Numbered from the stretch's first letter, positions 18,315 to 52,628 are shown. The stretch: DNA of 64,000 nt from GCF_058153355.1 NZ_CM177019.1; one strand, 5' to 3'. Numbers and translations are program-made. The notes: generated from the letters alone by a model not told the origin.

Positions 18315-18333
18315 CGGCAAATGTCGGGGTTTT

Positions 18334-20574: not shown

Positions 20575-21009
20575 CAGTGTTTCTCCTTTCGCCCGCCAGA
20601 GTAAAAAGCAACCGTTTACGTTATTGAAACTGTCTAAACATATGCTCGTGGAGTGCCAGTTTTTGCGAGGAAGGGGAGTTAGAGACAGGAATTGCGGAGG
20701 CAATCACATAATCGTGGTTAAACCACGAAAATGAGAAGAGAACCTGACAATGGAATTATCTGTAATTTTCTCATATTGATATTTTATTAATCATTCTGGC
20801 ATGTCGCACTCTCGCATTTAATCGTTTTTATCTGGATAGCGCTCTTTTGGTCGGCAATGTTGAAATAATGAAAGCGGCACAGATTGAGGGGCAATAATTT
20901 GAACTCAGTCGCAAAATTATAATTAAAACGGTCATGCTACCTAATATATGCCCGTTTATTGCATCGCGAACTTTGAGAAGACATAACTCATTAAATGAAA
21001 GGGATGCAA

Positions 21010-22929: not shown

Positions 22930-23417
22930 TGAAATCGTTAATTGTCGTTAATCCGGCTGATTGTATTGGCTGCCGTACTTGTGAAGTAGCCTGTGTGGTC
23001 GCTCATCCTTCAGAACAGGCGTTGAATGCCGATGTCTTTTTACCCCGGCTGAAGGTACAGCGACTGGACTGCATCAGTGCGCCGGTGATGTGCCATCAGT
23101 GTGAAAACGCCCCTTGTGTTGGCGCTTGCCCCGTGGGAGCGCTGACGATGGGCGAGCAGGTGGTGCAGGCCAATTCTGCCCGTTGTATTGGCTGTCAGAG
23201 TTGCGTCAGTGCGTGCCCGTTTGGGATGATAACCATTCAGTCGTTGCCGGGGGATACCCGGCAACAAATTGTGAAATGCGATCTCTGTGAACAGCGGGAA
23301 GAGGGGCCTGCCTGCGTTGAATCTTGCCCGACACAGGCACTGCAGTTGCTTACTGAAAGAGAACTCAGGCGAGTCCGCCAGCAGCGTATTGTTGCCAGCG
23401 GTGAGAATCCTCTCTGA
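22929..23417 (+). CDS. ygfS: 4Fe-4S ferredoxin-type protein YgfS
   Basis: 162 aa with four CxxCxxCxxxCP-type motifs. Its ATG overlaps the ygfT TGA (TGATG). Confidence 0.88.
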
Positions 23418-35882: not shown

Positions 35883-35962
35883 AACCCTCTCCTTAGCTTA
35901 TACAGATATCATTGAGTGACCGGTGTTGAGAAATCCGGTGGTTTAGGGGGATAAAGCAACAA

Positions 35963-35980
35963 TCGCACCACTCTTGCCAG
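35963..35980 (-). promoter_or_regulatory. candidate sigma54 (-24/-12) promoter for ygfK-ssnA-ygfM-xdhD...
   Basis: The minus strand reads CTGGCAAGAGTGGTGCGA. GG and GC have the canonical 10-nt spacing. It lies ~83 nt upstream of the ygfK ATG. Confidence 0.5.
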
Positions 35981-36203
35981 GTTTGGCGGGAAATATAAAA
36001 AAATGTGAGGCGGCTCGAAACTTAAGGGCTTTTTGTGAATGAACTCACAGGTGCCAAATGAGAATTAAAATCACTCCTGGAAATTATTATTACCAGCCCA
36101 TTTATCACTTTTTCTCTTTTCTCAAAATCAGTGATTCCTTATCATAATGATAAAGCAGGCTGGATGGTTTAGATATTTGAACGCAAACGTTTAACTACGT
36201 TTT

Positions 36204-36782
36204 CTAAATTTTAGTATACCTTTTTTGCGCTGTAATAAAGTCGTCCGGAGTATCAATATCTAAAATTATTTCTGCATTTTCTATTTCGACGGAATAATGT
36301 TCTCCCATAAGAAGTGCCTGACGCATATTGGTGACATTGGGTCGCTGGGTTGCCTGCATCAGGCATGGCTTTGACACTAAAATCGGATGGCCGGGGATAC
36401 CTTTATGGAGTGGCAGTATTGCGCCATCATTACGTAACGGCCAGATTTTTCTAAAAATATCGATGGTGAGGGTTGGCATGTCACCGTGGGTGAGAAAACA
36501 ATGTTCGGTTTGCACCGCGGGTACTGCGGCCTTTACTGATGTCAGTAAACCCTGCGCATAATATGGGTTGTGGATAATAGTGATATTACTCTGGTTCGCA
36601 TAACGTTCGTGCAGTTCATTACCACGATAGCCGGTGACTAAAATAATTCGGCTACAAAACTGCAACGCATTTTTGATACTTGCATCAAGAATTGTTCCCT
36701 GTTGCCAGGGTAACATCATTTTCCATTGCCCCATTCTTGATGATAATCCGGCAGCGGTAATTATACAGTCGATGGCTGACAT
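36204..36782 (-). CDS. mocA: molybdenum cofactor cytidylyltransferase
   Basis: 192 aa MobA-like nucleotidyltransferase (ITAAGLSSRMG motif). Confidence 0.9.
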   Translation of the reverse strand: MSAIDCIITAAGLSSRMGQWKMMLPWQQGTILDASIKNALQFCSRIILVTGYRGNELHERYANQSNITIIHNPYYAQGLLTSVKAAVPAVQTEHCFLTHGDMPTLTIDIFRKIWPLRNDGAILPLHKGIPGHPILVSKPCLMQATQRPNVTNMRQALLMGEHYSVEIENAEIILDIDTPDDFITAQKRYTKI

Positions 36783-36884
36783 AGTGGTTCCATTATTAAT
36801 AGGGGCTAATAACGCCTGTTAATTGCGTTACTCCCTGATGGATTAAGTTGGGGATAATTTATCCCAGAGAGGTCATAAAGACTC

Positions 36885-37655
36885 GTGAAAAGTATAGTTG
36901 ACCCATCGGCATTATTCATTGATTTAGGCGCGCAGAAACGTTCCACTGTGATTTCTGTTGTTGGGGCTGGGGGGAAAACCAGCTTGCTTTTTTGGCTGGC
37001 AGAGCTGCTCCAGTCTAGCGGCAGGCGTGTGTTAATCACTACGACGACACATATGTTTATGCCAACGTCTCACTGGCCCGTGGTTTTCTGTCGTGATCCC
37101 GCCATGCTTCCTCATGCGTCTCTTACATCCCCCATTTCATTTTGTTTTCACAGCTGGAAAGCGAACCAGGGAAAAGTGCAGGGATTTATGCCAGAAGCGA
37201 TTGATGCACTGGTGCAACGACCAGAGTGTGACGTAATTCTCATTGAGGCAGATGGCTCGCGTGGAATGCCGTTAAAAGCGCCTGATGAGCACGAACCTTG
37301 CATACCCAAAAGCAGTTGCTGCGTGATTGCTGTGATGGGAGGACATATTTTGGGTGCGAAAGTGAGCACAGAAAATGTCCATCGCTGGTCGCAGTTTGCT
37401 GATATTACCGGGTTAACACCTGATGCAACCTTGCAACTGAGCGATCTCGTTGCGCTGGTTCGCCACCCTCAGGGCGCATTTAAAAACGTACCGCAAGGTT
37501 GTCGGCGAGTCTGGTTCATTAACCGTTTTTCTCAATGTGAGAATGCGATTGCGCAAAGCGAGCTCCTTCAACCGCTGCAACAACACGACGTAGAGGCAAT
37601 CTGGCTGGGCGATATACAAGAACATCCTGCAATCGCGCGCAGATTTGTGAATTAG
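36885..37655 (+). CDS. yqeC: selenium-dependent hydroxylase accessory protein YqeC
   Basis: 256 aa, GTG start, P-loop GAGGKTS. Paired with yqeB. Confidence 0.88.
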   Translation: MKSIVDPSALFIDLGAQKRSTVISVVGAGGKTSLLFWLAELLQSSGRRVLITTTTHMFMPTSHWPVVFCRDPAMLPHASLTSPISFCFHSWKANQGKVQGFMPEAIDALVQRPECDVILIEADGSRGMPLKAPDEHEPCIPKSSCCVIAVMGGHILGAKVSTENVHRWSQFADITGLTPDATLQLSDLVALVRHPQGAFKNVPQGCRRVWFINRFSQCENAIAQSELLQPLQQHDVEAIWLGDIQEHPAIARRFVN

Positions 37656-37702
37656 CGGCCCGGGTATTCCGGGTTACTGAAAGGATATCCATTGAGGTTG
37701 GT

Positions 37703-39328
37703 ATGAATATTTTCACAGAGGCTGCAAAACTTGAAGAGCAAAATTGTCCGTTTGCGATGGCGCAAATTGTTGATAGCCGAGGCTCGACTCCCCGCCATTC
37801 TGCACAAATGTTAGTGCGCGCCGATGGTTCTATCGTCGGTACAATTGGTGGTGGAATGGTTGAGCGGAAGGTGATTGAAGAGTCGCTTCAGGCATTGCAG
37901 GAACGTAAGCCGCGATTATTCCATGGACGTATGGCTCGTAACGGTGTGGATGCTGTCGGGTCAGATTGTGGAGGTGCAATGTCCGTGTTTATCAGCGTCC
38001 ATGGTATGCGTCCTCGTCTGGTGTTGATTGGCGCGGGGCATGTCAACCGGGCGATAGCCCAGAGTGCGGCGCTATTAGGATTTGATATTGCCGTTGCCGA
38101 TATTTATCGCGAAAGCCTTAATCCTGAATTATTCCCACCATCAACCACGCTTCTCCATGCTGAGTCGTTTGGTGCGGCAGTGGAAGCACTGGATATTCGC
38201 CCTGATAATTTTGTCCTGATTGCCACGAATAATCAGGATCGTGAAGCCCTCGACAAACTCATTGAACAGCCCATTGCATGGCTGGGGTTGCTGGCAAGTC
38301 GCCGCAAGGTTCAGCTTTTCCTACGTCAATTGCGTGAGAAAGGCGTGGCTGAAGAACATATTGCCCGTTTACATGCGCCCGTTGGTTACAACATAGGTGC
38401 GGAAACGCCGCAGGAGATCGCCATCAGCGTGCTGGCAGAAATATTACAGGTGAAAAATAACGCGCCGGGTGGGCTGATGATGAAACCTTCTCATCCTTCC
38501 GGACACCAGCTGGTGGTGATTCGCGGTGCGGGGGATATCGCCAGTGGTGTGGCGCTACGTCTGTATCATGCGGGTTTTAAAGTGATCATGCTGGAAGTGG
38601 AAAAACCGACAGTGATTCGTTGTACCGTGGCGTTTGCCCAGGCCGTGTTCGATGGCGAAATGACGGTCGAAGGCGTCACTGCCCGCCTGGCAACCAGCTC
38701 TGCGGAAGCGATGAAACTTACCGAACGCGGATTCATCACTGTGATGGTAGATCCCGCCTGTTCATTGCTTGATGAACTGAAACCGCTTTGCGTGGTGGAC
38801 GCTATTCTGGCGAAACAGAATTTGGGTACGCGGGCAGATATGGCACCAGTAACAATCGCGCTTGGGCCGGGCTTTACTGCTGGAAAGGATTGCCATGCGG
38901 TAATTGAAACAAATCGCGGGCACTGGCTCGGTCAGGTGATTTACTCTGGTTGTGCGCAGGAGAATACCGGTGTTCCCGGCAATATTATGGGGCATACCAC
39001 CCGACGGGTGATCCGTGCTCCTGCTGCAGGCATTATGCGATCCAACGTGAAATTAGGCGATCTGGTGAAAGAGGGCGATGTGATTGCCTGGATTGGTGAG
39101 CATGAAATTAAAGCACCGTTGACGGGGATGGTGCGTGGCTTGTTGAACGACGGACTGGCGGTGGTCGGTGGTTTTAAAATTGGTGATATCGATCCACGTG
39201 GTGAAACGGCTGATTTCACCAGCGTTTCTGATAAAGCCCGGGCAATTGGCGGCGGCGTACTTGAGGCGTTAATGATGTTGATGCATCAGGGCGTTAAAGC
39301 GACAAAAGAAGTGCTGGAAGTGGCTTAA
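37703..39328 (+). CDS. yqeB: XdhC/CoxI-family plus EF2563-family accessory protein YqeB
   Basis: 541 aa with an N-terminal XdhC-like Rossmann domain and the C-terminal domain characteristic of the selenium-dependent molybdenum hydroxylase system. Confidence 0.88.
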   Translation: MNIFTEAAKLEEQNCPFAMAQIVDSRGSTPRHSAQMLVRADGSIVGTIGGGMVERKVIEESLQALQERKPRLFHGRMARNGVDAVGSDCGGAMSVFISVHGMRPRLVLIGAGHVNRAIAQSAALLGFDIAVADIYRESLNPELFPPSTTLLHAESFGAAVEALDIRPDNFVLIATNNQDREALDKLIEQPIAWLGLLASRRKVQLFLRQLREKGVAEEHIARLHAPVGYNIGAETPQEIAISVLAEILQVKNNAPGGLMMKPSHPSGHQLVVIRGAGDIASGVALRLYHAGFKVIMLEVEKPTVIRCTVAFAQAVFDGEMTVEGVTARLATSSAEAMKLTERGFITVMVDPACSLLDELKPLCVVDAILAKQNLGTRADMAPVTIALGPGFTAGKDCHAVIETNRGHWLGQVIYSGCAQENTGVPGNIMGHTTRRVIRAPAAGIMRSNVKLGDLVKEGDVIAWIGEHEIKAPLTGMVRGLLNDGLAVVGGFKIGDIDPRGETADFTSVSDKARAIGGGVLEALMMLMHQGVKATKEVLEVA

Positions 39329-39368
39329 ATGAAAATGGCCGGATGGTATTACCCACCCGGCCTTTAAA

Positions 39369-40301
39369 TTACTGACAAATCACCGTTCCGGTTTTGCCTT
39401 CAATCCCTTCTTTCGCTTTGCTCAATACGGTAATCAGTGCTTCGCGTCCAGCGCGAGAGCGAGCAAACGAGGCGGCTGCTTCCACTTTAGGCAGCATAGA
39501 ACCTTTCGCAAAATGACCTTCTTCGATAAAGCGTTCAGCATCACTTAATGACAGGCGATCGAGCCACTGTTCGTTCTCTTTACCGAAGTTAATGGCCACT
39601 TTTTCTACCGCAGTCAGAATGATCAGCATATCGGCATCAATCATTTCTGCTAAACGGGCGCTGGCCCAGTCTTTATCAATAACCGCGCTGGCACCACGCA
39701 GATGGTTACCTTCACGAATAACAGGAATACCACCACCGCCAACGGTGATCACCACCTGGCCTGCTTCTACCAGCGCTTTTACCGTCTCTTTTTCAATGAT
39801 ATCAACCGGTTTTGGTGAAGCAACAACACGACGATAGCCGCGACCAGCATCTTCTTTCAGGGTGTAGCCCTGTTTTGTCAGAAGTTCAGCTTCCTGCTCG
39901 GTAAAGAACGAACCGATCGGTTTGGTCGGGTTGAGGAATGCCGGATCGTTAGCGTCGACTTCGACCTGGGTCACCAGAGTGACAACGGGTTTATGAATGC
40001 CACGGGAGAGCAACTCTTCCCTTAAGGCGTTTTGTAGATCGTAACCAATATAACCCTGGCTTAAGGCAACACAGACGGACATCGGCAGCATTGGCGAGTG
40101 CGCTTCAGTTTTTGCCGCGGCTTCAAAGGCCTGGTTAATCATGCCTACCTGCGGCCCGTTACCATGAGTGACGATGACCTCATGTCCCTGGGCAATTAAA
40201 TCAACAATTGCCTGAGACGTAATTTTTACCGCTTTCATTTGTCCGGCTAGATCGTCGCCCAGCGCATTCCCGCCCAGGGCGAGAACAATTTTCTTACTCA
40301 T
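39369..40301 (-). CDS. yqeA: carbamate kinase-like protein YqeA
   Basis: 310 aa of the amino-acid kinase family, MSKKIVLALGGNALG ... THGNGPQVG. Confidence 0.92.
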   Translation of the reverse strand: MSKKIVLALGGNALGDDLAGQMKAVKITSQAIVDLIAQGHEVIVTHGNGPQVGMINQAFEAAAKTEAHSPMLPMSVCVALSQGYIGYDLQNALREELLSRGIHKPVVTLVTQVEVDANDPAFLNPTKPIGSFFTEQEAELLTKQGYTLKEDAGRGYRRVVASPKPVDIIEKETVKALVEAGQVVITVGGGGIPVIREGNHLRGASAVIDKDWASARLAEMIDADMLIILTAVEKVAINFGKENEQWLDRLSLSDAERFIEEGHFAKGSMLPKVEAAASFARSRAGREALITVLSKAKEGIEGKTGTVICQ

Positions 40302-40348
40302 TTTTCCTCACTCATCATTCTTGATTGTGTATAGATCCCTGGCAGTGG

Positions 40349-41734
40349 TTAGAGCACGGGAGGGACAAACGGTTTGCGTCGCAGGAAACGACCTCGCCCG
40401 GCTTTGCCTGTAAAGGTGCCGTCACAGAAAATCGTTTCACCACGGGATAATGTTCTGACAATCGCGCCCTGACAGGTAAACCCCTCCCAGGGCGAGTAGT
40501 CGGCGTTGTCGTGGAGATGGCGATGCTGAATTTGTTGGCTCTGACGTGGGTCGATAATCACCACGTCACCATCGGAACCGGGTGCTAATATCCCTTTTTG
40601 CGGCCACAGGCCAAACAGCCTGGCGGGCATTGCGCTGGTTAGTTCAACAAAACGCTCCGGTGTGATACGTCCCGTCATCACGCCACTGGAAAACAGTAAC
40701 TGCATGCGGTTTTCCACACCGGGTAAGCCATTTGGGCAGCGACTGAAATCGCCTTTAGAAATTTGCAGGCGTTGAGCCATCGAGAAGGTGCAGTGATCGG
40801 TCGCCACCACGTCAATCGCACCATCGCTGATGCCACACCACAGTTTGTCCTGCTCGCGTACGTTACGCAGCGGTGGGCTAAGAATGAACTTCATGCCATC
40901 TTCTGTATCGTAACTGCGTTCGTCCAACAGGAGATATTGTGGGCAGGTTTCAACCCAGACTGGCTGGTGATTCGCACGGGCAAGACGCAGATAATCCAGA
41001 CCTAAGCCGTTAGAGAGGTGGACGATATAGAGCGGGGCGTTACCGGCAATTTGTGCCAGGTTAATCATGCGTGCGATGGCTTCCGCTTCGCATTCCAGAG
41101 GGCGACTCAAGGCGTGATAGCGCGGCGCGGTTAACCCTGCGGCAATAAACTCCGCCCGCTTGCTGGCGATAGCCGCGTCATTTTCCGGGTGCACGGTGGT
41201 CAGTGCGCCAGACTCATGCAAGCGGCGTAATGCCTGCAACACTTCATCATCGTTGAGTTTATATTGATAGGTTAAATAGAGTTTAAAACTGCTCAGCCCT
41301 TCTTCGACCATCATCGGAATTTCGTCGAGGATGGCGTGATTAATGTGCTGGATAACACCGTGAAAGCTGTAGTCAATAACCGCTTTATGGGCGGCATAGC
41401 CACGATAAACTTCCAGTTGATGGCGTAACCGGCAGCCATTTGGTCCAAATCCCATATGGTCAATAATGGTTGTTGTACCGCCACACGCAGCTGCGCGGGT
41501 ACCGGTAAAAAAATCATCACAACTGCGCGCGATGCCGACATCAATATTGAAGTGTGTATGGACATCTACGCCGCCAGGGAAAACGTAACAGCCAGTAGCA
41601 TCAATTTCTTCATAAGGGAGCTGCGGCGAAATATCGGTGCCCAACTGGCGAACAATCCCGCTTTCAATCAGCAAATCCTGTTTGGCTTGTCCATCTGCGT
41701 TAACGATAGTGCCGTTTTTGATCAATACGCGCAT
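40349..41734 (-). CDS. hyuA: D-phenylhydantoinase / dihydropyrimidinase-family cyclic amidohydrolase
   Basis: The ORF is 40349..41746. The canonical start MRVLIKNGTIVNADG gives 461 aa. DVHTH metal motif present. Confidence 0.92.
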   Translation of the reverse strand: MRVLIKNGTIVNADGQAKQDLLIESGIVRQLGTDISPQLPYEEIDATGCYVFPGGVDVHTHFNIDVGIARSCDDFFTGTRAAACGGTTTIIDHMGFGPNGCRLRHQLEVYRGYAAHKAVIDYSFHGVIQHINHAILDEIPMMVEEGLSSFKLYLTYQYKLNDDEVLQALRRLHESGALTTVHPENDAAIASKRAEFIAAGLTAPRYHALSRPLECEAEAIARMINLAQIAGNAPLYIVHLSNGLGLDYLRLARANHQPVWVETCPQYLLLDERSYDTEDGMKFILSPPLRNVREQDKLWCGISDGAIDVVATDHCTFSMAQRLQISKGDFSRCPNGLPGVENRMQLLFSSGVMTGRITPERFVELTSAMPARLFGLWPQKGILAPGSDGDVVIIDPRQSQQIQHRHLHDNADYSPWEGFTCQGAIVRTLSRGETIFCDGTFTGKAGRGRFLRRKPFVPPVL

Positions 41735-41786
41735 AGCAAACTCCAAAAACCCTCCGGCGAACCGGAGGGGAATAAGTGAAGAATAA

Positions 41787-42998
41787 TTATTCGGTTGCCA
41801 GCCAGCTTAACGGGATTGCAGCGTACATAGCGGCACAGGTCACCAGGTGAGATTTCCAGGTTTTTTCGTTAGGTGCGTGCGCTTCAGGTTCTTTACCAGG
41901 GCCAAAACCGATCACCGGAATGCCGTGACGACCCATGATGGAGACGCCGTTAGTTGAGAAGGTCCACTTATCAACAACCGGCGCTTTGCCAAACAGCCCT
42001 TCGTAGGCGTTTACCAGGGCTTTAACAGTGAAGTGATCTTCTTCCACTTTCCAGGTCGGGAAGTAGCATTCGGTTGGGTAAACCAGGCCAGTCCAGGAAG
42101 GACGGTCGTAGTTGTACATAGAAACAACCGCGTTAGCTTTCTGTACCGCAGGCAGGGCGCGGATTTCGTCCAGCGCGCCTTCCCAGGTTTCGCCCCAGGT
42201 CAGACGACGGTCAATTGAAACTGCGCAGCTGTCTGCTACAGCGCAACGGCTTGGAGATGTGAAGAAGATTTCAGAAACGGTGAGGGTGCCTTTGCCGAGG
42301 AATTCGTCATAGCCCAGGCGCTGGGAGAGTTCCTGCAATTCGCCAAGAATCGGACCCATTTTGAAAATGGCGTTATCACCGCGTTCTGGCGCAGAGCCGT
42401 GGCAGCTAACGCCCTGAACATCAATGCGAATTTCCATACGACCGCGTTGACCACGATATACCTGGCAGTCGGTTGGTTCGGTACTGACCACAAATTCCGG
42501 GCGAATGCCAGATTGTTCAATAATGTACTGCCAGCACAGACCGTCGCAGTCTTCTTCCTGCACAGTGCCGGTGACCAGCAGGGTGTATTCATCTTCCAGA
42601 CCGAGGTCTTTAATGATTTTACCGGCATAAACCATAGATGCCATGCCGCCTTCCTGGTCGGAAGTACCACGGCCGCCGATCAGCTCATCAGTTTCCATGC
42701 CTTCGTACGGATCGAAGTCCCAGTTTTTGATGTTGCCAATGCCGACGGTGTCGATATGCGCGTCCATCGCCACCAGACGCGGGCCGTGACCGATATAACC
42801 GAGCACGTTGCCCATCGGGTCGATTTCAACTTTATCGAAGCCGACTTTTTCCATCTCTTCTTTAATACGATGCACTACGCGTTTTTCGTCGCAGCTTTCG
42901 CTGGGGATCGCAACCATGTCGCGCAGGAAGCGAGTCATGTCTGCCTGGTAATCTTTTGCTTTTTCAAGAATCAGTTTGAATGGAATATTCTTAGCCAT
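41787..42998 (-). CDS. ygeY: M20-family peptidase/deacylase YgeY
   Basis: 403 aa with ArgE/DapE/ACY1-type motifs. Confidence 0.9.
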
Positions 42999-43055
42999 TA
43001 TTTTTCTCCAGATTTTTTACTCCCCGTTTGGCGGGGAGCAGTTCCAATAGGGTGA

Positions 43056-44252
43056 TTAAGGTGCTACAGAGTGTTTGCCTTCCCAGACAACTTCGCGGTA
43101 GTGCTTCACGTCGGTGTCGCCTTCAGTGCTGATAACCAGCACCACTGCATCTTTGTTCAGCGCCAGTTTTTCCATCAGGCTTTGACGTTGCGGGTGATAA
43201 TGAACCGCCGCGAGAACGCCTAAACCGACAGCGCCGGATTCACCGGAGATGATGCGCGGGTCGTTGCCGTACGGATTACCCAGCACGCGCATACCTAATG
43301 CGGCAACGCTGTCCTGGCAGGAGATGAATTGGGTGGCGCAGTTACGTAGGATTTCCCAGCCCAGTGGGTTAGGTTCGCCGCAAGCCAGGCCCGCCATGAT
43401 AGTGGCCATATCGCCGCCAACGTTGACGATGTCGCCTTTGACACCAGAACGATAGATACAGTCAGCTTTGTCAGGTTCAACAATAATGCTGTGCAGATTT
43501 TGCGGGCTGTAGACGTCGACCAGATAACCCAGCACACCACCGGCCATAGCACCGACACCGGCTTGCAGCAGAACGTGCGTCGGGGTTACGCCCATTTCAC
43601 GCATTTGCTCTACGGCTTCATCTGCCAGGGTGGCGTAACCTTGCATGATCCAGGTTGGGATTTTGGTGTAGCCTTCCCTGGCGGTATCTTGCACCACTTC
43701 CCAGCCGTGTTGCTGCGCGTGTTGCATGGTCAGACGAACGGTATCGTCATAGTTCATATCAGTGACGATGCACTCGGCTCCGAGGTTCAGAATGGCGTCA
43801 ACGCGTTCCTGAGCGGAACCTTTCGGCATGTAAATTACCGCGTTCTGACCGAGTTGCTGTGCTGCCCAGGCAACACCGCGCCCGTGGTTGCCGTCGGTCG
43901 TTGTAGCAAATGTCATTTTTTCGCCGATGGCATTTTTCAGATGCTCGAATGACAGTGTTTCGATATCAAGATGATATTTTTCGCACAACAACTGAGCGAT
44001 GGCATATGCGCCGCCGAGCATTTTGAATGCGTTCAGACCGAATCGTTTTGATTCGTCCTTAACGAGAATTTTTTTTACCCCAAAAAGGTTTGCGAGATCG
44101 TCCAGCGCGCAAAGTGGTGTTGGGCGATAGCCAGCAATTTTCTGGTGGAACTGGCGCGCCAGTTTTGCCTGGCTTTGCGAAAAGAGCGGTGATGTTTCGC
44201 CGTTGAAAAATTTGTTATCGGCGATATCAATCTTCAATGAGAAAACGGACAT
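43056..44252 (-). CDS. ygeX: PLP-dependent diaminopropionate ammonia-lyase
   Basis: 398 aa, tryptophan-synthase-beta-like fold, with the lysine motif region KDESKRFGLNAFKMLGG. Confidence 0.92.
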   Translation of the reverse strand: MSVFSLKIDIADNKFFNGETSPLFSQSQAKLARQFHQKIAGYRPTPLCALDDLANLFGVKKILVKDESKRFGLNAFKMLGGAYAIAQLLCEKYHLDIETLSFEHLKNAIGEKMTFATTTDGNHGRGVAWAAQQLGQNAVIYMPKGSAQERVDAILNLGAECIVTDMNYDDTVRLTMQHAQQHGWEVVQDTAREGYTKIPTWIMQGYATLADEAVEQMREMGVTPTHVLLQAGVGAMAGGVLGYLVDVYSPQNLHSIIVEPDKADCIYRSGVKGDIVNVGGDMATIMAGLACGEPNPLGWEILRNCATQFISCQDSVAALGMRVLGNPYGNDPRIISGESGAVGLGVLAAVHYHPQRQSLMEKLALNKDAVVLVISTEGDTDVKHYREVVWEGKHSVAP

Positions 44253-44310
44253 ATCCTATCCTTTTGGCCTCTGGAAATAGAGAGCCGACCTGTCGATCGG
44301 CCCGAGGGGG

Positions 44311-45501
44311 TTATTTCACGCGTTCTTGCGCTTCTTTCAGCAGTTGTTCGAGCAGTGCGCCTGGTTTGGAATATTTACGGGAAAGGATCATTGCTGCGAT
44401 GATGTATGGCTTCCAGCTGGCTTCTTTGTAGGTCGCGATACGGTATTTTTCGAATACGCCTTCAGTGACTTCACCTTCTTTGCAGGATACGCCGCTGATA
44501 TCTGCTGGCAGGCAGTGCATGTACAGGGCTTCGCCATCACGGGTCAGTTCCATCATCTCTTCAGTGCAATGCCAGTCTTTGTGTTGCGCGTTCTGTGCCA
44601 GACACTGTTTTTCCAGTGCTTTTAAGCCTTCGTGATCGTTCGCACGCAGCAGTTCAGTACGCTCTTCCATCACTTTGTAAGGTGCCCATGACTTCGGATA
44701 AACGATGTCTGCGTCTTTGAAGGCTTCTTCCATGCTGGTGACCTGACGGAAGCTACCGCCAGAGGCTTTAGCATTATTTTTCGCTACTTCAACTACATCC
44801 GGGATCAAATCGTAGCCTTCCGGATGGGCCAGGGTGACGTCCATACCGAAGCGGGTCATCAGGCCGATAATGCCTTGCGGTACAGAGAGCGGTTTGCCGT
44901 AGCTTGGGGAGTATGCCCAGGTCATGGCGATTTTTTTACCTTTCAGGTTTTCGAGCGAACCAAAGTGTTCACGCAACCATGCCAGGTCAGCCATTGACTG
45001 AGTCGGATGGTCGATATCGCATTGCAGGTTCACTAAAGCCGGACGCTGTGGAAGCACGCCCTGCTTGTAGCCGTCATCAAGCGCAGCGCCAACTTCACGC
45101 ATATAGGCGTTACCTGCGCCCAGATACATATCGTCACGAATACCAATAGCGTCGGCGCAGAAGGAGATCATATTGGCGGTTTCACGTACGGTTTCGCCGT
45201 GAGCGATTTGTGATTTGCCTTCGTCGAGATCTTGCTGTGCAAGGCCGAGCAGGTTAAGCGCGGAAGCATAAGAGAAGCGGGTACGGGTGGAGTTGTCGCG
45301 GAATACGGAAATACCTAATCCACTATTAAAGACTTTGGTTGAGATGTTTTCAGCACGCAGTGCTTTTAATGCTGCGGCAACGTCCAGTACTTGTTTCAGT
45401 TCATCAGGCGTCTGTTCCCACGTTAACAAAAAATCTTTCTCGTGAAGGTGAGAGGTCAGCGAATTGATATCCTTAATCAGCTCATTAACAGTTTTCATCA
45501 T
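44311..45501 (-). CDS. ygeW: carbamoyltransferase YgeW (ATCase/OTCase family, unknown substrate)
   Basis: 396 aa with the STRTR carbamoyl-phosphate motif and HCLP motif. Confidence 0.92.
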   Translation of the reverse strand: MMKTVNELIKDINSLTSHLHEKDFLLTWEQTPDELKQVLDVAAALKALRAENISTKVFNSGLGISVFRDNSTRTRFSYASALNLLGLAQQDLDEGKSQIAHGETVRETANMISFCADAIGIRDDMYLGAGNAYMREVGAALDDGYKQGVLPQRPALVNLQCDIDHPTQSMADLAWLREHFGSLENLKGKKIAMTWAYSPSYGKPLSVPQGIIGLMTRFGMDVTLAHPEGYDLIPDVVEVAKNNAKASGGSFRQVTSMEEAFKDADIVYPKSWAPYKVMEERTELLRANDHEGLKALEKQCLAQNAQHKDWHCTEEMMELTRDGEALYMHCLPADISGVSCKEGEVTEGVFEKYRIATYKEASWKPYIIAAMILSRKYSKPGALLEQLLKEAQERVK

Positions 45502-45591
45502 AAAGTCCCGGTAGTGGAATGACAGGCAAAGTGGTTTATTTCACTGTGACTTGCCAAAGTGATTGGTGTTTTCACAGCTATACCAGGGACT

Positions 45592-45607
45592 AACAATAAG
45601 TGTGCCA
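45592..45607 (-). promoter_or_regulatory. candidate sigma54 (-24/-12) promoter for ygeW-ygeX-ygeY-hyuA-yqeA
   Basis: The minus strand reads TGGCACACTTATTGTT, against the consensus TGGCAC-N5-TTGCW. It lies ~90 nt upstream of the ygeW ATG. Confidence 0.55.
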
Positions 45608-45976
45608 GAATTATCCACGCGGCTATAAAAGACTAATTTGACGGGTAATGTGTGGTGTAGATCACAAATTGATGCCAGCTTCCGGTTGTGTGTAAAATAC
45701 GAAAACGTTTGGCTTTTTTTATTGCGTTGTTTATTTGCTGCTAAGTATCAGAAATAAGATAAAGGGGCAGGCTATCCCTCGTCAGTTTGATAAACTCACC
45801 GCTGTAATTCTCATATTGATATAGAAATGTGATATCTCTTCCATAATTTCATTAGAAAGTGATAAAAACCTTATGTTTTTATCAAAGCCAATTTCGCCTG
45901 AGTTAATATCATGATGATCTGTGAACCATCAACGTCTTCAATGATCGACTTTTAAGTAAGTCTGGAAGGTAAAGCT

Positions 45977-47755
45977 ATGGAGCTTGCTACTACGCAGTCA
46001 GTATTGATGCAAATTCAACCGACAATTCAGCGTTTTGCCAGAATGCTTGCCAGCGTTTTGCAGCTTGAGGTTGAGATCGTTGATGAAAACTTGTGTCGCG
46101 TCGCCGGAACGGGCGCGTATGGGAAGTTTCTTGGCCGCCAGTTGAGCGGCAACTCACGCCTGCTCCGCCACGTCCTGGAAACGAAAACTGAAAAAGTTGT
46201 GACACAGTCTCGCTTCGATCCCCTTTGCGAAGGTTGCGATAATAAAGATAATTGTCGCGAAAAAGCATTTCTGGGTACGCCTGTCATTTTACAGGATCGT
46301 TGTGTTGGGGTGATAAGTTTGATTGCAGTTACCCACGAGCAACAAGAACATATCAGTGATAATTTACGCGAGTTTTCTGATTACGTTCGCCATATATCCA
46401 CCATTTTTGTTTCGAAACTTCTGGAAGATCAGGGACCAGGAGATAACATCAGTAAAATATTTGCGACCATGATCGATAATATGGATCAGGGCGTTTTAGT
46501 TGTTGATGACGAAAATCGGGTTCAGTTTGTTAATCAGACTGCCTTAAAAACACTCGGTGTTGTGCAAAATAATATTATTGGGAAACCTATTCGTTTCAGA
46601 CCATTAACATTTGAGAGTAATTTTACCCATGGACATATGCAGCATATTGTTTCGTGGGACGATAAAAGTGAATTAATCATTGGTCAATTACATAACATTC
46701 AGGGCCGACAATTATTTTTAATGGCGTTTCACCAATCGCATACCAGTTTTTCTGTAGCAAATGCACCTGATGAACCGCATATTGAACAATTGGTTGGCGA
46801 GTGCCGTGTTATGCGGCAATTAAAACGACTCATTAGCCGTATTGCACCCAGCCCATCCAGCGTTATGGTGGTTGGTGAAAGCGGCACGGGTAAAGAAGTC
46901 GTCGCGCGTGCAATCCATAAGTTGAGTGGAAGACGAAATAAACCCTTTATTGCTATCAACTGTGCCGCGATTCCTGAACAACTTCTGGAGAGCGAACTAT
47001 TCGGTTATGTTAAAGGCGCATTTACTGGCGCTTCAGCCAACGGTAAAACAGGGTTGATTCAGGCGGCGAATACGGGCACGCTGTTTCTCGATGAAATTGG
47101 TGATATGCCATTAATGTTGCAGGCTAAATTACTGCGCGCTATTGAGGCGCGTGAAATACTGCCGATTGGTGCCAGTAGCCCAATTCAGGTCGACATCCGT
47201 ATCATTTCTGCAACTAACCAGAATTTGGCCCAGTTCATCGCCGAAGGTAAATTCCGCGAAGATCTCTTCTACCGACTTAATGTTATCCCGATCACTCTTC
47301 CACCGCTGCGTGAACGTCAGGAAGATATTGAACTGCTGGTACATTACTTTTTACATCTGCATACCCGTCGTCTGGGATCGGTTTATCCGGGTATTGCTCC
47401 CGATGTCGTCGAGATATTGCGTAAGCATCGTTGGCCCGGAAACCTGCGCGAGTTAAGCAATTTAATGGAATATCTGGTTAACGTTGTTCCTTCAGGTGAA
47501 GTTATCGACAGCACGCTATTGCCGCCAAATTTGCTGAATAATGGCACAACAGAGCAAAGTGATGTAACAGAGGTCAGCGAGGCGCACTTGACACTCGATG
47601 ATGCGGGCGGCACGGCGCTGGAGGAGATGGAAAAGCAAATGATCCGCGAGGCACTTTCACGTCATAACAGCAAGAAGCAAGTTGCTGATGAACTGGGTAT
47701 CGGCATTGCTACGCTCTATCGCAAGATAAAGAAATATGAGTTGTTAAACGCATAA
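45977..47755 (+). CDS. ygeV: sigma54-dependent transcriptional activator YgeV (bEBP)
   Basis: 592 aa with N-terminal sensory (GAF/PAS-like) domains, a central AAA+ domain with GESGTGKE and GAFTGA motifs, and a C-terminal Fis-type HTH. Confidence 0.94.
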   Translation: MELATTQSVLMQIQPTIQRFARMLASVLQLEVEIVDENLCRVAGTGAYGKFLGRQLSGNSRLLRHVLETKTEKVVTQSRFDPLCEGCDNKDNCREKAFLGTPVILQDRCVGVISLIAVTHEQQEHISDNLREFSDYVRHISTIFVSKLLEDQGPGDNISKIFATMIDNMDQGVLVVDDENRVQFVNQTALKTLGVVQNNIIGKPIRFRPLTFESNFTHGHMQHIVSWDDKSELIIGQLHNIQGRQLFLMAFHQSHTSFSVANAPDEPHIEQLVGECRVMRQLKRLISRIAPSPSSVMVVGESGTGKEVVARAIHKLSGRRNKPFIAINCAAIPEQLLESELFGYVKGAFTGASANGKTGLIQAANTGTLFLDEIGDMPLMLQAKLLRAIEAREILPIGASSPIQVDIRIISATNQNLAQFIAEGKFREDLFYRLNVIPITLPPLRERQEDIELLVHYFLHLHTRRLGSVYPGIAPDVVEILRKHRWPGNLRELSNLMEYLVNVVPSGEVIDSTLLPPNLLNNGTTEQSDVTEVSEAHLTLDDAGGTALEEMEKQMIREALSRHNSKKQVADELGIGIATLYRKIKKYELLNA

Positions 47756-47794
47756 CCTCAGTAAATCCGGCCTGAGTTCAGGCCGGATATCCTT

Positions 47795-48274
47795 TTACTT
47801 CGTTTTCTCGCAATCCAGAACTGTATTTACAATCATCTGATACCCCGTGCAGCGACAAAGATTTCCCGCCAGGCCGCGACGAATCTCCGTAATAGTTAAT
47901 GGCTTCTCGCGTGGTTTCGCCAGCATTGCCGTGGTAGCCATAATCAGGCCAGGCGTACAAAACCCGCACTGCACCGCGCCGGATTTCGCATAAGCTTGCT
48001 GGACATGAGAAAGTTTTCCGCCTTTCGCTTCACCTTCCAGCGTGCGGATTTCTTTGCCTTCAGCCCAGGCGGCAAGGTATAAGCAACTGTCTATCGCAGT
48101 ACCGTCGACCAGCACCGTACAGGCACCACATTCACCCACGCAGCAACCTTGCTTGACGCTTAGCAGTCCTTGTTCGCGGAGTAATTCCGAGAGCGGCGTG
48201 CCTGGCGCGGCGTGAAGCTGAAAAGGTATCTCGTTAATGGTGCATTCGATGGTAATTGTTTCGCTGTGATTCAT
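47795..48274 (-). CDS. xdhC: xanthine dehydrogenase [2Fe-2S] subunit
   Basis: 159 aa with two 2Fe-2S Cys motifs ([11 protein letters not shown]; CGFCTPG...CRCTGY). Confidence 0.94.
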
Positions 48275-49149
48275 TGCAATTTTCCCCCCGCCGCGGCGAC
48301 GGCTTCACTAATCACTTTTTTGGTCATCGTCTGGATGAGATGCAGACGAAACTCTTTGCTGGCCCGCCATGATGAACGCGGGGCGACATCCTGCAGGACT
48401 GATTCGCTGATGGCTTCCAGCGTTTGCAGGTTTAATGGCGCATTTTGTGCAGTTTGTTCGGCATGTTGGCAGCGAATCGGCGTTGGCGCGGCAACGCCAA
48501 ATGCCAGGCGTAATTCGCTGAAATTGCCGTTATCCAGTCGGCAATGTGCGGCACAGCCAATCGTTGAAATATCCATCGCATCGCGCATGGCATATTTGAA
48601 ATGCGCGCTGCCTGCGTGTTCTTTCGGCTGGGGCGGAAAATGAAAGGCGACAAGGATTTCGTCATGCTCAAGGGACACTTTGCCCGGTCCGGTGTGGAAG
48701 CCATTAATCGGGACGAAATGAACACCGCGCGGGGAGTGGATCTCCAGCTTCGCATCATAAATTAGCGTTGGCGTGGCAGAATCCGCGCTGGTGGCTCCGT
48801 TGCAAATATTTCCTCCGTAGGTAGCGACGTTACGGATCTGCGGCCCGGCAATGGATGATGCCGCAGCACATAATGCCGGGAGATGACGTTGAGTTACAGG
48901 ATCTTCAATGAGCTGGGTAAATGTCGTTGCTGAGCCGATGCGTAGCGAGTCATCTTCCGCTAGCGTAATTCCACGAAGCTCCGTCAGATTGTGGATATCA
49001 ACAATATGGCGATAACGGTCATTGTGATGGTGGAGCTGAATCAGTACGTCAGTGCCACCGGCGAGCAGTTTGGCCTGCGGGTTGTCAGCCAGCAGGTTGA
49101 TGGCATCGGCAAGGGTTGCTGCGCGATGGTAAGAAGCAAAATCAAACAT
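48271..49149 (-). CDS. xdhB: xanthine dehydrogenase FAD-binding subunit
   Basis: 292 aa with a PCMH-type FAD domain. It overlaps the xdhC start. Confidence 0.94.
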
Positions 49150-49159
49150 GATGTTATCC

Positions 49160-51418
49160 TCAAATCAATCCTGCCAGATGGAACTCTTCATATAACCGTT
49201 TTGGCGTCAGCGGCAGTGTATTGATTGCAACACCGGTAGCCATCTTCACTGCGTTACGAATAGCAGCGGCAACAGGAATTATGGGTGGCTCACCCAGTGA
49301 CTTATGTCCGTATGCGGATTGCGGCTCATTGATTTCGACGAACGCGCTTTCCAGTTGTGGCAGATCCGGCATGGTAGGCATTTTGTAATCCAGCAGATTG
49401 GGGTTACGGACCACGCCGCTTTTCGCATCGATGATCATTTCTTCAAATAGCGCCCAGCCAATGCCCATTCCCATTCCGCCGTGTACCTGACCTTCTGCCA
49501 GCAACGGATTAAGAATATGGCCCGAATCATGAACGTTGAGGATGCGGTTGATGGTGACTTTGCACAGCGCAATATCGACAGTCAGATCAACAAAGGTACA
49601 GCCAAACGCCGGTGGGTTAGTGGTGGTTTTGATGGAGCTTTCGGCAGAGAGCTGCCCGCCGCGTTCAGGGTGGTAGAAAGCGTCCATCGCCACATCTTTT
49701 AACGACATTAACGGCTCTTCCGGTCGTTCAACCAGCACGATATGGCCTTTTATCAGGGTAAGATTCATCGCTGACTGATGTAGCATGACAGCGGCGTGAG
49801 CGATGATTTTCTCCTTTAATAACAGTGCCGCACTGCGCAGCGCAGGCGCGGCAACATAGCTCTGGCGTGAGGCAAATGCACCGGGATCGAACGGCGTAAT
49901 GTCGGTATCTTGGGTTGAAATAACGCGAACGTCGCTGACCTGAACCCCCACGGTTTCTGCTACCATTTGCGAGAAGACAGTGTCGGCCCCCTGACCGATT
50001 TCCGTCGCGCCGCTTTGCACATTGATGGTTCCATCCTGATTCATCAGAAGGCGCGCGCCTGCTATTTCTACGCCGACAGGCCAGGTGTTAGAGGTGTAGC
50101 TAAAACAGGCGACGCCAACGCCGCGGCGTAAATTGCCTTGCTGGTTCTGGCATTCTGCACGGCGTTTTTCCCATTCAAATATTTTCCGGCCTTTTTCAAG
50201 ACACTCCGGTAACCCTGCGCTGTAAATACGTTTGCCCGTGAGCGGATTAGCATCTCCTTCGCGGGCGGCGTTGCGTAAACGAATTTCAATAGGATCAATA
50301 TTTAACGCTGTCGCGGCGTCATCAAGCATTGACTCAACGGCAAATACGACTTGTGGCGCGCCATAACCGCGCATCGCTCCAGCCGAGGGGAGGTTGGTAT
50401 AAAAGGTCTTTGAACTGTAAGCGTAGGCACAACGAGGATAAAGGTAAGCGACTTTATTCCCGCCCGCAGAAGCGATGGAGTGCCCGTGAGATGCATAAGC
50501 GCCGGTGTTAGACAGAACATCCAGACTATAACCTTTCAATGTTCCGTCGCGGTTCACGCCCATTTGCCCGTCAATAGTAAAAGCGTGGCGGGTACGGGTT
50601 GCGAGGAAACACTCTTCACGGCTAAGGGAAACTTTCACCGGAATGCCGCCGAGCTTGCTGGTCAGAAATGCCGCCATTGGCTCTTCCAGTACATCCTGTT
50701 TATTACCAAAACCGCCACCGACAAACGGTTTGATGACTCGTACGCATGACCAGGGAATATCCAGCGCCTGACCAACTACGCGGCGAACAATGTGCGGGAT
50801 CTGGGTGCTGGAAACGATGGTAATTCGAGAGTCATCCTCCATCCATGCCAGCGATGTCACGCTTTCCATATGACAATGTTGAATAACGGGAGTCTGATAG
50901 TGCCCCTGCACCTGGTAATCGGCGGCATCGATTGTTTGTTGGACATTACCCGTCGACATCGAGCTTTGTTTTAGTAAATTGCCGCCGTTATGGATTGGTG
51001 CAGCATCTTCTGCCAACGCCGCTTCTGGCGTGGTGATAACGGGTAATTCTTGCCACTCAATGCTGACCAATTGCGCCGCTTTTTCTGCCGTGAGTTCATC
51101 ACGGGCCACGACGATGGCAACGGCGTCACCATGATGACGAACATGGCGAGTTAGCAGTGCGCGATCGGCGGTATCGCGCTTGTTTTCGTCAAGTGTCCAG
51201 GCATGCCCAGCTGTAGCGAATGGGATATCAGGTACATCTTCCCAGGTAAAAATTGCCAGTACGCCTGGTAAACTTCTGGCTTGTTCATCATTAATACTTA
51301 CGGCATAACCATGTGCGATAGGGCTACGTACATATTTCGCGTAACACATGCCCGCCATAACATAATCGTCAGTATATCGTGCCCGCCCAGTGACCTTAGC
51401 AATGGCATCGACGCGCAT
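49160..51418 (-). CDS. xdhA: xanthine dehydrogenase molybdenum-binding subunit
   Basis: The ORF is 49160..51457. The canonical start MRVDAIAKVTGRARYTDDY gives 752 aa. Confidence 0.93.
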   Translation of the reverse strand: MRVDAIAKVTGRARYTDDYVMAGMCYAKYVRSPIAHGYAVSINDEQARSLPGVLAIFTWEDVPDIPFATAGHAWTLDENKRDTADRALLTRHVRHHGDAVAIVVARDELTAEKAAQLVSIEWQELPVITTPEAALAEDAAPIHNGGNLLKQSSMSTGNVQQTIDAADYQVQGHYQTPVIQHCHMESVTSLAWMEDDSRITIVSSTQIPHIVRRVVGQALDIPWSCVRVIKPFVGGGFGNKQDVLEEPMAAFLTSKLGGIPVKVSLSREECFLATRTRHAFTIDGQMGVNRDGTLKGYSLDVLSNTGAYASHGHSIASAGGNKVAYLYPRCAYAYSSKTFYTNLPSAGAMRGYGAPQVVFAVESMLDDAATALNIDPIEIRLRNAAREGDANPLTGKRIYSAGLPECLEKGRKIFEWEKRRAECQNQQGNLRRGVGVACFSYTSNTWPVGVEIAGARLLMNQDGTINVQSGATEIGQGADTVFSQMVAETVGVQVSDVRVISTQDTDITPFDPGAFASRQSYVAAPALRSAALLLKEKIIAHAAVMLHQSAMNLTLIKGHIVLVERPEEPLMSLKDVAMDAFYHPERGGQLSAESSIKTTTNPPAFGCTFVDLTVDIALCKVTINRILNVHDSGHILNPLLAEGQVHGGMGMGIGWALFEEMIIDAKSGVVRNPNLLDYKMPTMPDLPQLESAFVEINEPQSAYGHKSLGEPPIIPVAAAIRNAVKMATGVAINTLPLTPKRLYEEFHLAGLI

Positions 51419-51512
51419 GCATGATTCACCCGTAGCGGTTGCTTCCCGCGCTTCCATAGAAATCCCCTCGATTTGAACATTTGGTTCTTATGGCAAAGAT
51501 TTAGTCTAAGCA

Positions 51513-51528
51513 GGCAAGATTTACGCCA
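51513..51528 (-). promoter_or_regulatory. candidate sigma54 (-24/-12) promoter for xdhABC
   Basis: The minus strand reads TGGCGTAAATCTTGCC, with GG-N10-GC matching TGGCAC-N5-TTGC. It lies ~95 nt upstream of the xdhA ATG. Confidence 0.6.
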
Positions 51529-51872
51529 GAAACGACGATAAACGTTAGGGGAGGAAGGAAGTGTGATGACGTTAAAAAAATACAGATACGATACGAAACA
51601 GGACTTTGAATAGGGACAGTGATACGTATCAATATGAGTGGCGATAAAATCAATGTGATAAATTAGGATTATTACGCATCAGGATGGGAAATAGGGTAAA
51701 AGAGTCAGGAACTTCGATACCACCACAGCAAATATTTTGCTTATGATACTTCCCTTTGCCAAATGAAATTAATCTCTTTCTCAATTACCTCGTTTTTCCA
51801 GAAGCGAGAGATTGGGTATCAAGAGGCTGGCTGCTATGATATGGCGTCTTGTTTTTTAAGCGAGGAAAGATT

Positions 51873-52628
51873 TTGAGTGCGGGACGCCTGAATAAAAAAT
51901 CTCTGGGTATCGTGATGTTGTTATCGATTGGACTGCTTTTGGCGGGCTGTTCGGGTTGCAAATCATCCGATACAGGAACGTATTCCGGCTCCGTTTACAC
52001 CGTGAAACGGGGGGATACGCTATATCGTATTTCGCGCACCACGGGAACCAGCGTAAAAGAACTTGCGCGACTGAACGGCATTTCACCCCCTTACACCATT
52101 GAAGTTGGTCAGAAACTAAAACTGGGTGGGGCGAAAAATAGCAGTAGTACACGTAAAGCAACCGCCAAATCAACGACCAAAACCGCATCGGTTACACCGT
52201 CATCAGCGGTACCGAAATCTTCCTGGCCGCCAGTAGGGCAACGTTGTTGGTTATGGCCAACGACAGGGAAAGTTATCATGCCGTATTCGACAGCTGATGG
52301 CGGCAATAAAGGGATTGATATCTCTGCTCCACGGGGTACACCTATTTACGCCGCGGGTGCAGGAAAGGTGGTGTATGTGGGCAACCAGCTGCGTGGCTAC
52401 GGTAATCTCATCATGATTAAACACAGTGAAGATTACATTACGGCTTACGCCCATAATGACACGATGCTGGTAAATAATGGGCAAAGCGTGAAGGCTGGGC
52501 AAAAAATCGCCACTATGGGGAGCACTGATGCGGCATCGGTTCGCCTGCATTTCCAGATTCGTTACCGTGCAACGGCAATTGATCCGCTACGTTACTTGCC
52601 GCCTCAGGGCAGCAAGCCAAAATGCTGA
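51873..52628 (+). CDS. ygeR: LysM/M23-peptidase-domain lipoprotein YgeR
   Basis: TTG start preceded by AGGAAAG. Lipobox LLAGC. A LysM domain (YTVKRGDTLYRISR) is followed by an M23 domain. 251 aa. Confidence 0.88.
   Translation: MSAGRLNKKSLGIVMLLSIGLLLAGCSGCKSSDTGTYSGSVYTVKRGDTLYRISRTTGTSVKELARLNGISPPYTIEVGQKLKLGGAKNSSSTRKATAKSTTKTASVTPSSAVPKSSWPPVGQRCWLWPTTGKVIMPYSTADGGNKGIDISAPRGTPIYAAGAGKVVYVGNQLRGYGNLIMIKHSEDYITAYAHNDTMLVNNGQSVKAGQKIATMGSTDAASVRLHFQIRYRATAIDPLRYLPPQGSKPKC

Follow-up and report, generated by a model that had tools for sequence, protein, structure and literature searches.

Organization of the purine/urate cluster

We analysed a 64,000-nt stretch of NZ_CM177019.1 (GCF_058153355.1), hereafter the window, an E. 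coli-type chromosomal segment carrying the xdhABC / ygeV / ygeWXY-hyuA-yqeA / ygfK-ssnA-ygfM-xdhD purine-urate cluster; our subject is the sigma54 promoters of these operons and the conserved DNA elements upstream of them. The operons serve anaerobic urate and purine degradation in gut bacteria and are being engineered into probiotics for gout, and the switching-on of the urate pathway is still poorly defined. Gene coordinates are those of the RefSeq annotation of the best-matching E. coli genome, carried onto the window, whose orientation is the reverse complement of K-12. On the minus strand lie xdhCBA (47795-51457), the joint block of yqeA/arcC, hyuA, ygeY, ygeX/dpaL and ygeW (39369-45498) and ygfK (32784-35882), with ssnA, ygfM, xdhD, xanQ, guaD and ghxQ, all minus strand, on the low-coordinate side of ygfK. 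Between xdhCBA and ygeW, on the plus strand, is ygeV (45977-47755), the sole gene for a sigma54 enhancer-binding protein in the window. Two further genes of interest, uacT (19126-20574, minus) and ygfTS (21010-23417, plus), share a divergent spacer.

An earlier reading of this DNA, made from the sequence only, had described three long unidirectional gene strings, each preceded by a candidate sigma54 promoter. That description fits each operon, although yqeC (36885-37655) and yqeB (37703-39328) are encoded on the opposite, plus strand between the ygeW and ygfK strings. When complete E. coli genomes were searched with the 17.5 kb around the sites, 5,423 of 5,426 gave a match, the top identity being 98.8%. 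The four regulatory spacers are 95.6-98.6% identical to those of K-12 (95.6-96.4% for the spacers at xdhA, ygeW and ygfK), and the sigma54 elements of xdhA, ygeW and ygfK show no differences between the window and K-12.

Identification of sigma54 elements

All seven sequence strings named in the sequence-only reading were found on the minus strand where it had placed them. The plain consensus search behind that reading, TGGCAC-N5-TTGC, returned 87 matches in the window against 82.5 expected when two mismatches were allowed, and it was dropped because its matches were at chance level. As the consensus search had no statistical force, we instead built a position weight matrix (PWM) from 130 sigma54 sites mapped by chromatin immunoprecipitation sequencing (ChIP-seq; Bonocora et al. 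2015, PMC4591121), excluding the five sites of this cluster, and scored 127,968 window positions on both strands; the median score of the training sites was 14.4. By this independent matrix, the xdhA, ygfK and ygeW elements were ranks 2, 3 and 4 of all positions. They are CTGGCGTAAATCTTGCC at 51513-51529 (score 15.4, joint top; predicted start ~51502), GTGGTGCGATTGTTGCT at 35955-35971 (14.2; predicted start ~35944; in a corrected register, see below) and CTGGCACACTTATTGTT at 45592-45608 (13.8; predicted start ~45581), all on the minus strand. In K-12, the three identical 17-mers are the best three PWM matches in 40 kb. Each element is directed at its gene and has the ten-base GG/GC spacing of a TGGCAC-N5-TTGCW-like sequence; the -12 block of ygeW is TTGT rather than TTGC, as it also is at the pspA and pspG sites of the ChIP list.

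The promoters proposed earlier at xdhA and ygeW were exactly placed, as judged by ChIP-seq identity, PWM rank and conservation. All three proposed sites are real promoters, but the cluster has at least five: a weak match upstream of ygfT, TATGCCCGTTTATTGCA (20947-20963, plus; PWM 5.6), corresponds to ChIP-seq site OS32, and TGAGCACGAACCTTGCA, in sense orientation inside yqeC (37286-37302, plus; PWM 9.0), corresponds to IS34 and lies 400 nt upstream of yqeB.

The distance from element to first ATG had been given as 83-96 nt for all three operons; counted from the 3’ end of the element, it is 90-93 nt at ygeW, 94 nt at xdhA if the K-12 ATG is used or 55 nt from the upstream in-frame ATG of the Prokaryotic Genome Annotation Pipeline (PGAP), and 72 nt at ygfK in the corrected register (~80 nt in the earlier one). 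Predicted starts lie 84 (xdhA), 80 (ygeW), 62 (ygfK) and 36 nt (ygfT) from the gene start, the same distances as in Bonocora et al. The start codon of xdhA varies with the annotation, PGAP using the ATG at 51457 (MEAREATATGESCMRVD...) and K-12 that at 51418 (MRVD...), which gives 5’ untranslated regions of 45 and 84 nt, respectively.

Most of these promoters have been seen before. Among the sites that Bonocora et al. 2015 list in their Table 1 (PMC4591121), OS29 is the xdhA 17-mer (experimentally confirmed in EcoCyc; occupancy score 11), OS30 is the ygeW 17-mer (ChIP-seq occupancy score 3) and OS31 is the ygfK 17-mer found here at 35955-35971 (predicted in EcoCyc; occupancy score 26). OS32 lies upstream of ygfT (occupancy score 3), and IS34 of Table 2 lies inside yqeC, directed at yqeB (occupancy score 7). 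Although the window derives from a different strain, the K-12 sites OS29, OS30 and OS31 and the EcoCyc xdhA and ygfK promoters have the same 17-mers and the same start-to-gene distances. In an rpoN deletion, xdhA and ygfK expression fell 2.1-fold and 2.4-fold, and on sigma54 induction it rose 4.9-fold and 2.1-fold, respectively (Zhao et al. 2010, PMC2831329); our literature search found no report of rpoN-dependent expression of ygeW. A peak for in vitro RpoN holoenzyme was obtained in the ygeV/ygeW spacer by genomic systematic evolution of ligands by exponential enrichment (gSELEX; Shimada et al. 2021, PMC8743547). One co-expressed set, the ‘YgeV iModulon’, comprises the xdh, ygeW and ygfK operons along with ygfT and uacT, and its description notes the known sigma54 promoters (Lamoureux et al., PMC10602906). 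As cited in that work, Iwadate & Kato 2019 found lower ygfT expression in a ygeV mutant, and papers citing them credit them with the induction of ygfT by urate and its dependence on ygeV. With ChIP-seq, rpoN dependence, gSELEX and the iModulon all published, the central claim of sigma54 promoters at xdhA, ygeW and ygfK is already in the literature and databases.

The remaining member of this group, uacT, belongs to the YgeV iModulon yet is without a listed high-stringency ChIP site. The 68 nt before the gene separate it from a sigma54-like element, CTGGCACTCCACGAGCA, that is weak (20643-20659, minus; PWM 5.8).

Register of the ygfK element

At ygfK the sequence-only reading had the right promoter in the wrong register: the element it proposed (35963/4-35980) scores 8.2 and ranks about 62nd, versus 14.2 for 35955-35971, and the element favoured by both score and conservation lies 9 nt further downstream. 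To compare orthologous loci, we fetched them with a YgeW query and annotated them by tblastn. The ygfK upstream regions of nine genomes (Escherichia, two Citrobacter, Klebsiella, Pluralibacter, Buttiauxella, Lelliottia, strain RIT693 and Mixta) could be aligned, and in all nine a block (G/C)TGG(T/C)(G/C)(C/T)G-N5-TTGCT is kept 71-87 nt before ygfK. The GG of the downstream register is present in 9/9 species and that of the earlier register in 2/9; outside Escherichia and its closest relative, the CTGGCA block of the latter reads CCAGCA, CTCTGA, AATGAA, GCGCTA, ATTTGA or TTACGG. The earlier register was rejected for its low score and poor conservation. Because 35955-35971 is kept throughout while the CTGGCA block diverges, it is most likely the functional ygfK element.

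Conservation of the other sigma54 elements

Of 17 loci, ranging from Citrobacter to Shewanella, 16 have the ygeW element 80-108 nt before the gene; in one Photobacterium the distance is 232 nt. The genera represented are Citrobacter, Klebsiella, Pluralibacter, Buttiauxella, Lelliottia, Serratia, Mixta, Aeromonas, Vibrio, Photobacterium and Shewanella; the element is mostly the best or second-best PWM match of the 21-kb locus, and its spacer and flanks vary between genera. Among ygeW loci of other phyla, just 1 of 58 had an upstream PWM score of 11 or more. Citrobacter and Klebsiella also retain the xdhA element, and in Mixta the xdh-like genes are preceded by an equivalent one.

Serratia and Aeromonas keep the site inside yqeC at the same position. 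A short yqeB-like gene of Buttiauxella (open reading frame 16224-17024 of that locus) has an intergenic sigma54 promoter of its own (17093-17109), which shares the candidate ygfK enhancer described below. Because IS34 lies upstream of it, at a conserved position, and the Buttiauxella yqeB-like gene has a sigma54 promoter of its own, yqeB looks like a genuine member of the regulon.

A conserved palindrome upstream of the sigma54 promoters

Upstream of four of the promoters we found a 13-bp dyad, T(A/C)TCA-N3-TGA(T/G)A, centred 125 (xdhA), 207 (ygeW), 175 (ygfK) and 172 bp (ygfT) upstream of the -24 element, which we regard as a candidate YgeV enhancer. At ygfK it is a perfect palindrome, TATCATTATGATA (36140-36152), conserved in all aligned Enterobacteriaceae, with its sole K-12 difference in the spacer. 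The ygeW copy, TATCAATATGAGA (45809-45821, minus), had escaped the sequence-only reading, as had a weaker secondary site 29 bp downstream of it, TATCAAACTGACG (45780-45792, minus), which is conserved as TATCA-N3-TGACG in Citrobacter, Klebsiella, Pluralibacter and Buttiauxella. Two candidate sites precede xdhA, TATCACATTGATT (51648-51660, minus), to which the distance of 125 bp refers, and ACTCATATTGATA (51627-51639, minus), 21 bp away. In the divergent uacT/ygfT spacer, TCTCATATTGATA (20769-20781, plus) lies upstream of the ygfT element and is also 116 bp upstream of the weak uacT candidate CTGGCACTCCACGAGCA. An exact 12-mer, CTCATATTGATA, occurs in three copies, one in each of three spacers (in xdhA site 2, at 20770 and at 45810). 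Differences between the window and K-12 dyads fall in the spacer or outside the half-sites, except for one in the weak second ygeW site.

The sequence-only reading had worried that AT-richness might account for the palindromes. For the refined dyad this worry falls away, as the enrichment survives composition-matched simulation. With up to one mismatch, TATCA-N3-TGATA occurs nine times in the window versus 1.2 expected, a count that none of 100 shuffles reached. Five of the nine lie inside the four regulatory spacers (1,649 bp), where 0.1 were expected and none of 5,000 first-order Markov simulations reached five.

The dyad is also conserved well beyond E. coli. All 19 of the 19 gamma-proteobacterial loci have it in the 450 bp before ygeW, with up to one mismatch and often perfect; perfect examples are TATCAATATGATA (Vibrio and Photobacterium), TATCAGAATGATA (Shewanella) and TATCAAAATGATA (Serratia). 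None of the 58 ygeW loci of other phyla, which are without a YgeV orthologue, contains the dyad. Seventeen of the 19 dyad-bearing loci encode a YgeV orthologue within the fetched sequence, in 15 of them adjoining ygeW. At xdhA the distance from the dyad centre to -24 is 124-125 bp in E. coli, Citrobacter, Klebsiella and Mixta; at ygfK it is either 175 or 154 bp across genomes, a step of 21 bp. In Pluralibacter and Buttiauxella, a single dyad stands between two divergent sigma54 promoters, that of ygfK and that of the short yqeB-like gene, which is of the XdhC family. The 31 dyads that we collected have the core TATCA-WWW-TGATA and flanks that are not conserved.

Four palindromes had been proposed earlier as enhancer sites. 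Their half-site type, TGATA/TATCA, was correctly recognized, but just one of the four is the conserved element: the ygfK palindrome at 36139-53 contains the perfect TATCA-N3-TGATA that is conserved in all compared Enterobacteriaceae. At xdhA, the palindrome at 51620-31 (TGATACGTATCA) survives in one arm only, its TGATA being conserved within ACTCATATTGATA (as CTCATATTGATAC) while the second arm is not and its 6-bp arms are at chance length. The ygeW palindrome at 45746-61 has 4-bp arms and is unconserved past the closest relative. Both were rejected as units, being unconserved and having arms no longer than chance. The inverted repeat at 45860-84 does have arms of 10 bp, rarer than chance (0.7% of simulations), but it is only partly conserved and is not the conserved dyad. 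This repeat (TGATAAAAAC-N5-GTTTTTATCA) lies 93-117 bp upstream of the ygeV ATG; K-12 pairs 9 of its 10 positions, and other genera keep just the TTGATA arm. One possible role is that of an operator for ygeV transcription.

Phased CRP-like sites between dyad and promoter

CRP-like sites of the TGTGA-N6-TCACA type lie at restricted positions relative to the predicted starts: TTTTAACGTCATCACA at -67.5 of xdhA (51562-51577), TGTGATCTACACCACA at -77.5 of ygeW (45651-45666), and TTCGAGCCGCCTCACA at -67.5 (36004-36019) and the perfect consensus TGTGAGTTCATTCACA at -97.5 (36034-36049) of ygfK. Others are centred at -68.5 of ygfT (20898-20913), at -68.5 of the weak uacT candidate (20693-20708) and at -78.5 of the yqeC-internal sigma54 site (37227-37242). 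One site is thus perfect (36034-49), one has a single mismatch (45651-66) and the others have two. In other genomes, matches with up to two mismatches in the interval from -125 to -40 fall almost only at -67.5, -77.5 (±1 bp) and -97.5, positions that lie on one face of the helix. The site is kept at -67.5 of xdhA in four genera and within 1 bp of -77.5 of ygeW in Enterobacterales and Aeromonas. Low-resolution CRP gSELEX targets include ygfK, ygeV<>ygeW and ygfT<>ygfU (PMC3105977). The ygeV/ygeW spacer is also said to contain a native Crp site in PMC12507026, where the Crp-site region of a uric-acid-degrading engineered strain was replaced to raise expression.

No exact IHF consensus was found between dyad and promoter. 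Because of this, and because the CRP-like sites are phased and conserved, CRP bound there would probably act as a bending and co-regulatory element, supplying both a DNA bend and an input of carbon status. CRP also acts at the sigma54 promoters glnAp2 and dctA. As there, the CRP-like sites described here are of the TGTGA-N6-TCACA type and lie upstream of -24/-12, between enhancer and polymerase; unlike there, they occupy a fixed position of -67.5, -77.5 or -97.5 across one regulon and are accompanied by no IHF consensus. This arrangement suggests a positive architectural role.

YgeV as the candidate activator

YgeV has the architecture of a sigma54 activator, with Pfam matches to PAS (162-205), Sigma54_activat (272-439; E = 7.7e-71), an AAA lid and HTH_8 (548-587; E = 1.4e-13). 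Its translation contains the GAFTGA motif, and an AAA+ sigma54-interaction domain is combined with a C-terminal helix-turn-helix (HTH); no other protein encoded in the window has GAFTGA together with Walker-type sigma54-activator signatures. The proposal that a single enhancer-binding protein, YgeV, serves the three operons agrees with the YgeV iModulon (PMC10602906). Among orthologues of 44-95% overall identity, the recognition helix LGIG(I/V)ATLYRK(I/L)KKY is essentially invariant, which fits the invariant DNA core of the dyad. No paper defining a YgeV binding site was found in the searchable literature, so we infer that the TATCA-N3-TGATA dyad is the YgeV site, an assignment that we consider probable.

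We are fairly confident that the E. coli purine/urate regulon is built on sigma54 promoters that YgeV activates through the upstream dyads. In the mechanism that we propose, sigma54 RNA polymerase is bound in closed complexes at the -24/-12 elements of xdhABC, ygeWXY-hyuA-yqeA, ygfK-ssnA-ygfM-xdhD, ygfTS and the yqeC-internal site, as the literature shows. Oligomers of YgeV (PAS / AAA+ / Fis-type HTH, encoded divergently from ygeW) would assemble on the dyads 125-207 bp upstream, which often have a weaker partner site at a distance of 20-29 bp, and the N-terminal Cys-rich/PAS region is a putative sensor. The intervening DNA would be bent, probably by CRP at -67.5 or -77.5, allowing YgeV to loop to the polymerase. 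As is known for the family, its GAFTGA loops would then touch sigma54, and ATP hydrolysis would open the promoter.

NtrC-type enhancers such as those of glnAp2 are 7-N3-7 dyads (TGCACCA-N3-TGGTGCA) that lie 100-150 bp upstream and are bound by proteins with a Fis-type HTH. The elements described here resemble them in their dyad symmetry, their N3 spacer, the pairing of sites at xdhA and ygfK with an offset of about two helical turns, their position upstream of -24 (125-207 bp) and the AAA+ and HTH_8 domains of the activator. They differ in the half-site, which is TATCA here and GCACCA there, and in the activator, which begins with a Cys-rich region and PAS in YgeV and with a receiver domain in the NtrC type; binding by YgeV is predicted here from sequence.

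Several observations weigh against this model. Co-occurrence of the dyad with YgeV is confounded by phylogeny, as every positive locus is gamma-proteobacterial, and two Aeromonas loci contain both DNA elements but no ygeV within 10 kb. Upstream of the yqeC-internal sigma54 site we found no palindrome; conversely, a perfect palindrome, TATCAAGATGATA, lies inside ygeX/dpaL (43964-43976) with no sigma54 element nearby. At ygeW the consensus C is absent from the -12 block and the ChIP occupancy score is just 3. In addition, the literature search found no transcription start mapping, so that all start positions given here are predicted. The position of the ygeX-internal palindrome is kept in Citrobacter and Klebsiella (~11521 of three of the fetched loci), and it may reflect a coding constraint or an internal binding site.

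The identity of the dyad-binding protein is where an alternative has most to draw on. Another regulator, global or purine-specific, might bind TATCA-N3-TGATA while YgeV acts elsewhere, for example at the 45860-84 repeat, which is statistically unusual and has arms containing TGATA/TATCA; the searchable literature holds no direct YgeV binding data, and the Aeromonas loci retain the palindrome without a nearby ygeV. We nevertheless consider this unlikely. The palindrome accompanies the sigma54 promoters of the regulon at enhancer-like distances, the yqeC-internal site excepted, and the invariant YgeV helix matches its invariant core, whereas the 45860-84 repeat occurs at one promoter only and is poorly conserved. 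Nor do Fur or IHF fit the dyads: a Fur box was rejected as an explanation, the best matches reaching at most 12/19, a level common in the window, and the IHF consensus is absent.

Two further alternatives concern the promoters themselves, and we give both very little weight. That the functional ygfK element is TGGCAAGAGTGGTGC (GG at 35977-78), or that both overlapping registers are used in Escherichia, would accord with its GG-N10-GC spacing and with the register printed for ygfK by Zhao et al. 2010 (PMC2831329; aaccTGGCAAGAGTGGTGCGATtgtt), and the 9-bp difference is below the resolution of ChIP-seq. This is very improbable given its lower PWM score and the loss of its GG in Klebsiella, Citrobacter sp., Pluralibacter, Buttiauxella, Lelliottia, RIT693 and Mixta, the downstream register being present in all nine genomes; the choice of MEME also fell on the downstream element, with the centre of the ChIP peak on the downstream side of that element. 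Least likely of all, the sigma54 sites might be occupied but mostly unproductive, with sigma70 promoters under CRP control driving expression. Binding is not equal to transcription, as Bonocora et al. stress (PMC4591121), and the conservation of CRP-type sites at every promoter, the CRP gSELEX matches in these spacers (PMC3105977) and the swap of the Crp-site region for higher expression (PMC12507026) could be read in this way. Against it stand the rpoN-dependent expression of xdhA and ygfK (PMC2831329), the joint conservation of -24/-12, enhancer and YgeV over large evolutionary distances, and the phasing of the CRP-like sites to the sigma54 elements; a sigma70 scan of the ygeV/ygeW spacer gave a single match, no better than chance and directed at ygeV.

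With activation by YgeV through the dyads as the preferred reading, we lean, with some reserve, towards a previously undescribed three-part design of the YgeV regulon that extends from Escherichia to Shewanella: a dyad for the invariant YgeV HTH, a CRP site that is fixed on one helical face (-67.5, -77.5 or -97.5) and bends the DNA in place of IHF, and the -24/-12 element. If true, this design makes the anaerobic urate regulon predictable in full from its DNA, with uacT, ygfT and yqeB among the members. What the refined dyad and the phased CRP sites add to the known promoters is modest but testable. Together with the corrected ygfK register, they provide targets that can be mutated to examine YgeV as a urate-responsive activator, and the same targets could be used to deregulate or rewire the urate pathway.

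Other features of the window

The PWM score of one position in xdhD, ATGGCGCAAACTTTGCT (28176-28192, minus), equals the highest in the window (15.4), 585 nt upstream of xanQ. It was set aside as a strain polymorphism: K-12 has TTCGCT there, scoring 11.4, and shows no ChIP peak at high stringency. Upstream of the position we found no palindrome of the enhancer type, and the supplementary tables of Bonocora et al. 2015 contain no rows for xdhD, xanQ or uacT. It is probably a strain-specific chance match.

PurR/LacI-family-like boxes with a AAACGTTT core occur in three of the four regulatory spacers, at 20607-20620, 36182-36195 and 45700-45713, the box upstream of ygeW being, for example, AGCCAAACGTTTTCGT. 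Matches to CGCAAACGTTTGCG with up to three mismatches showed no window-wide enrichment (seven versus 5.7 expected), and three of them lie in regulatory spacers.

The cluster is flanked or interspersed by mocA (36204-36782, minus), between ygfK and yqeC, and actS (51873-52628, plus), beyond xdhA. Relative to E. coli 2013C-4282, the window contains two insertions. An IS4-family insertion (16888-18315) lies between lysS and idi and has an open reading frame (16902-18248) with Nterm_IS4 and DDE_Tnp_1 domains; the second, of the IS110 family, spans ~6750-8029 with an open reading frame at 6856-7836.

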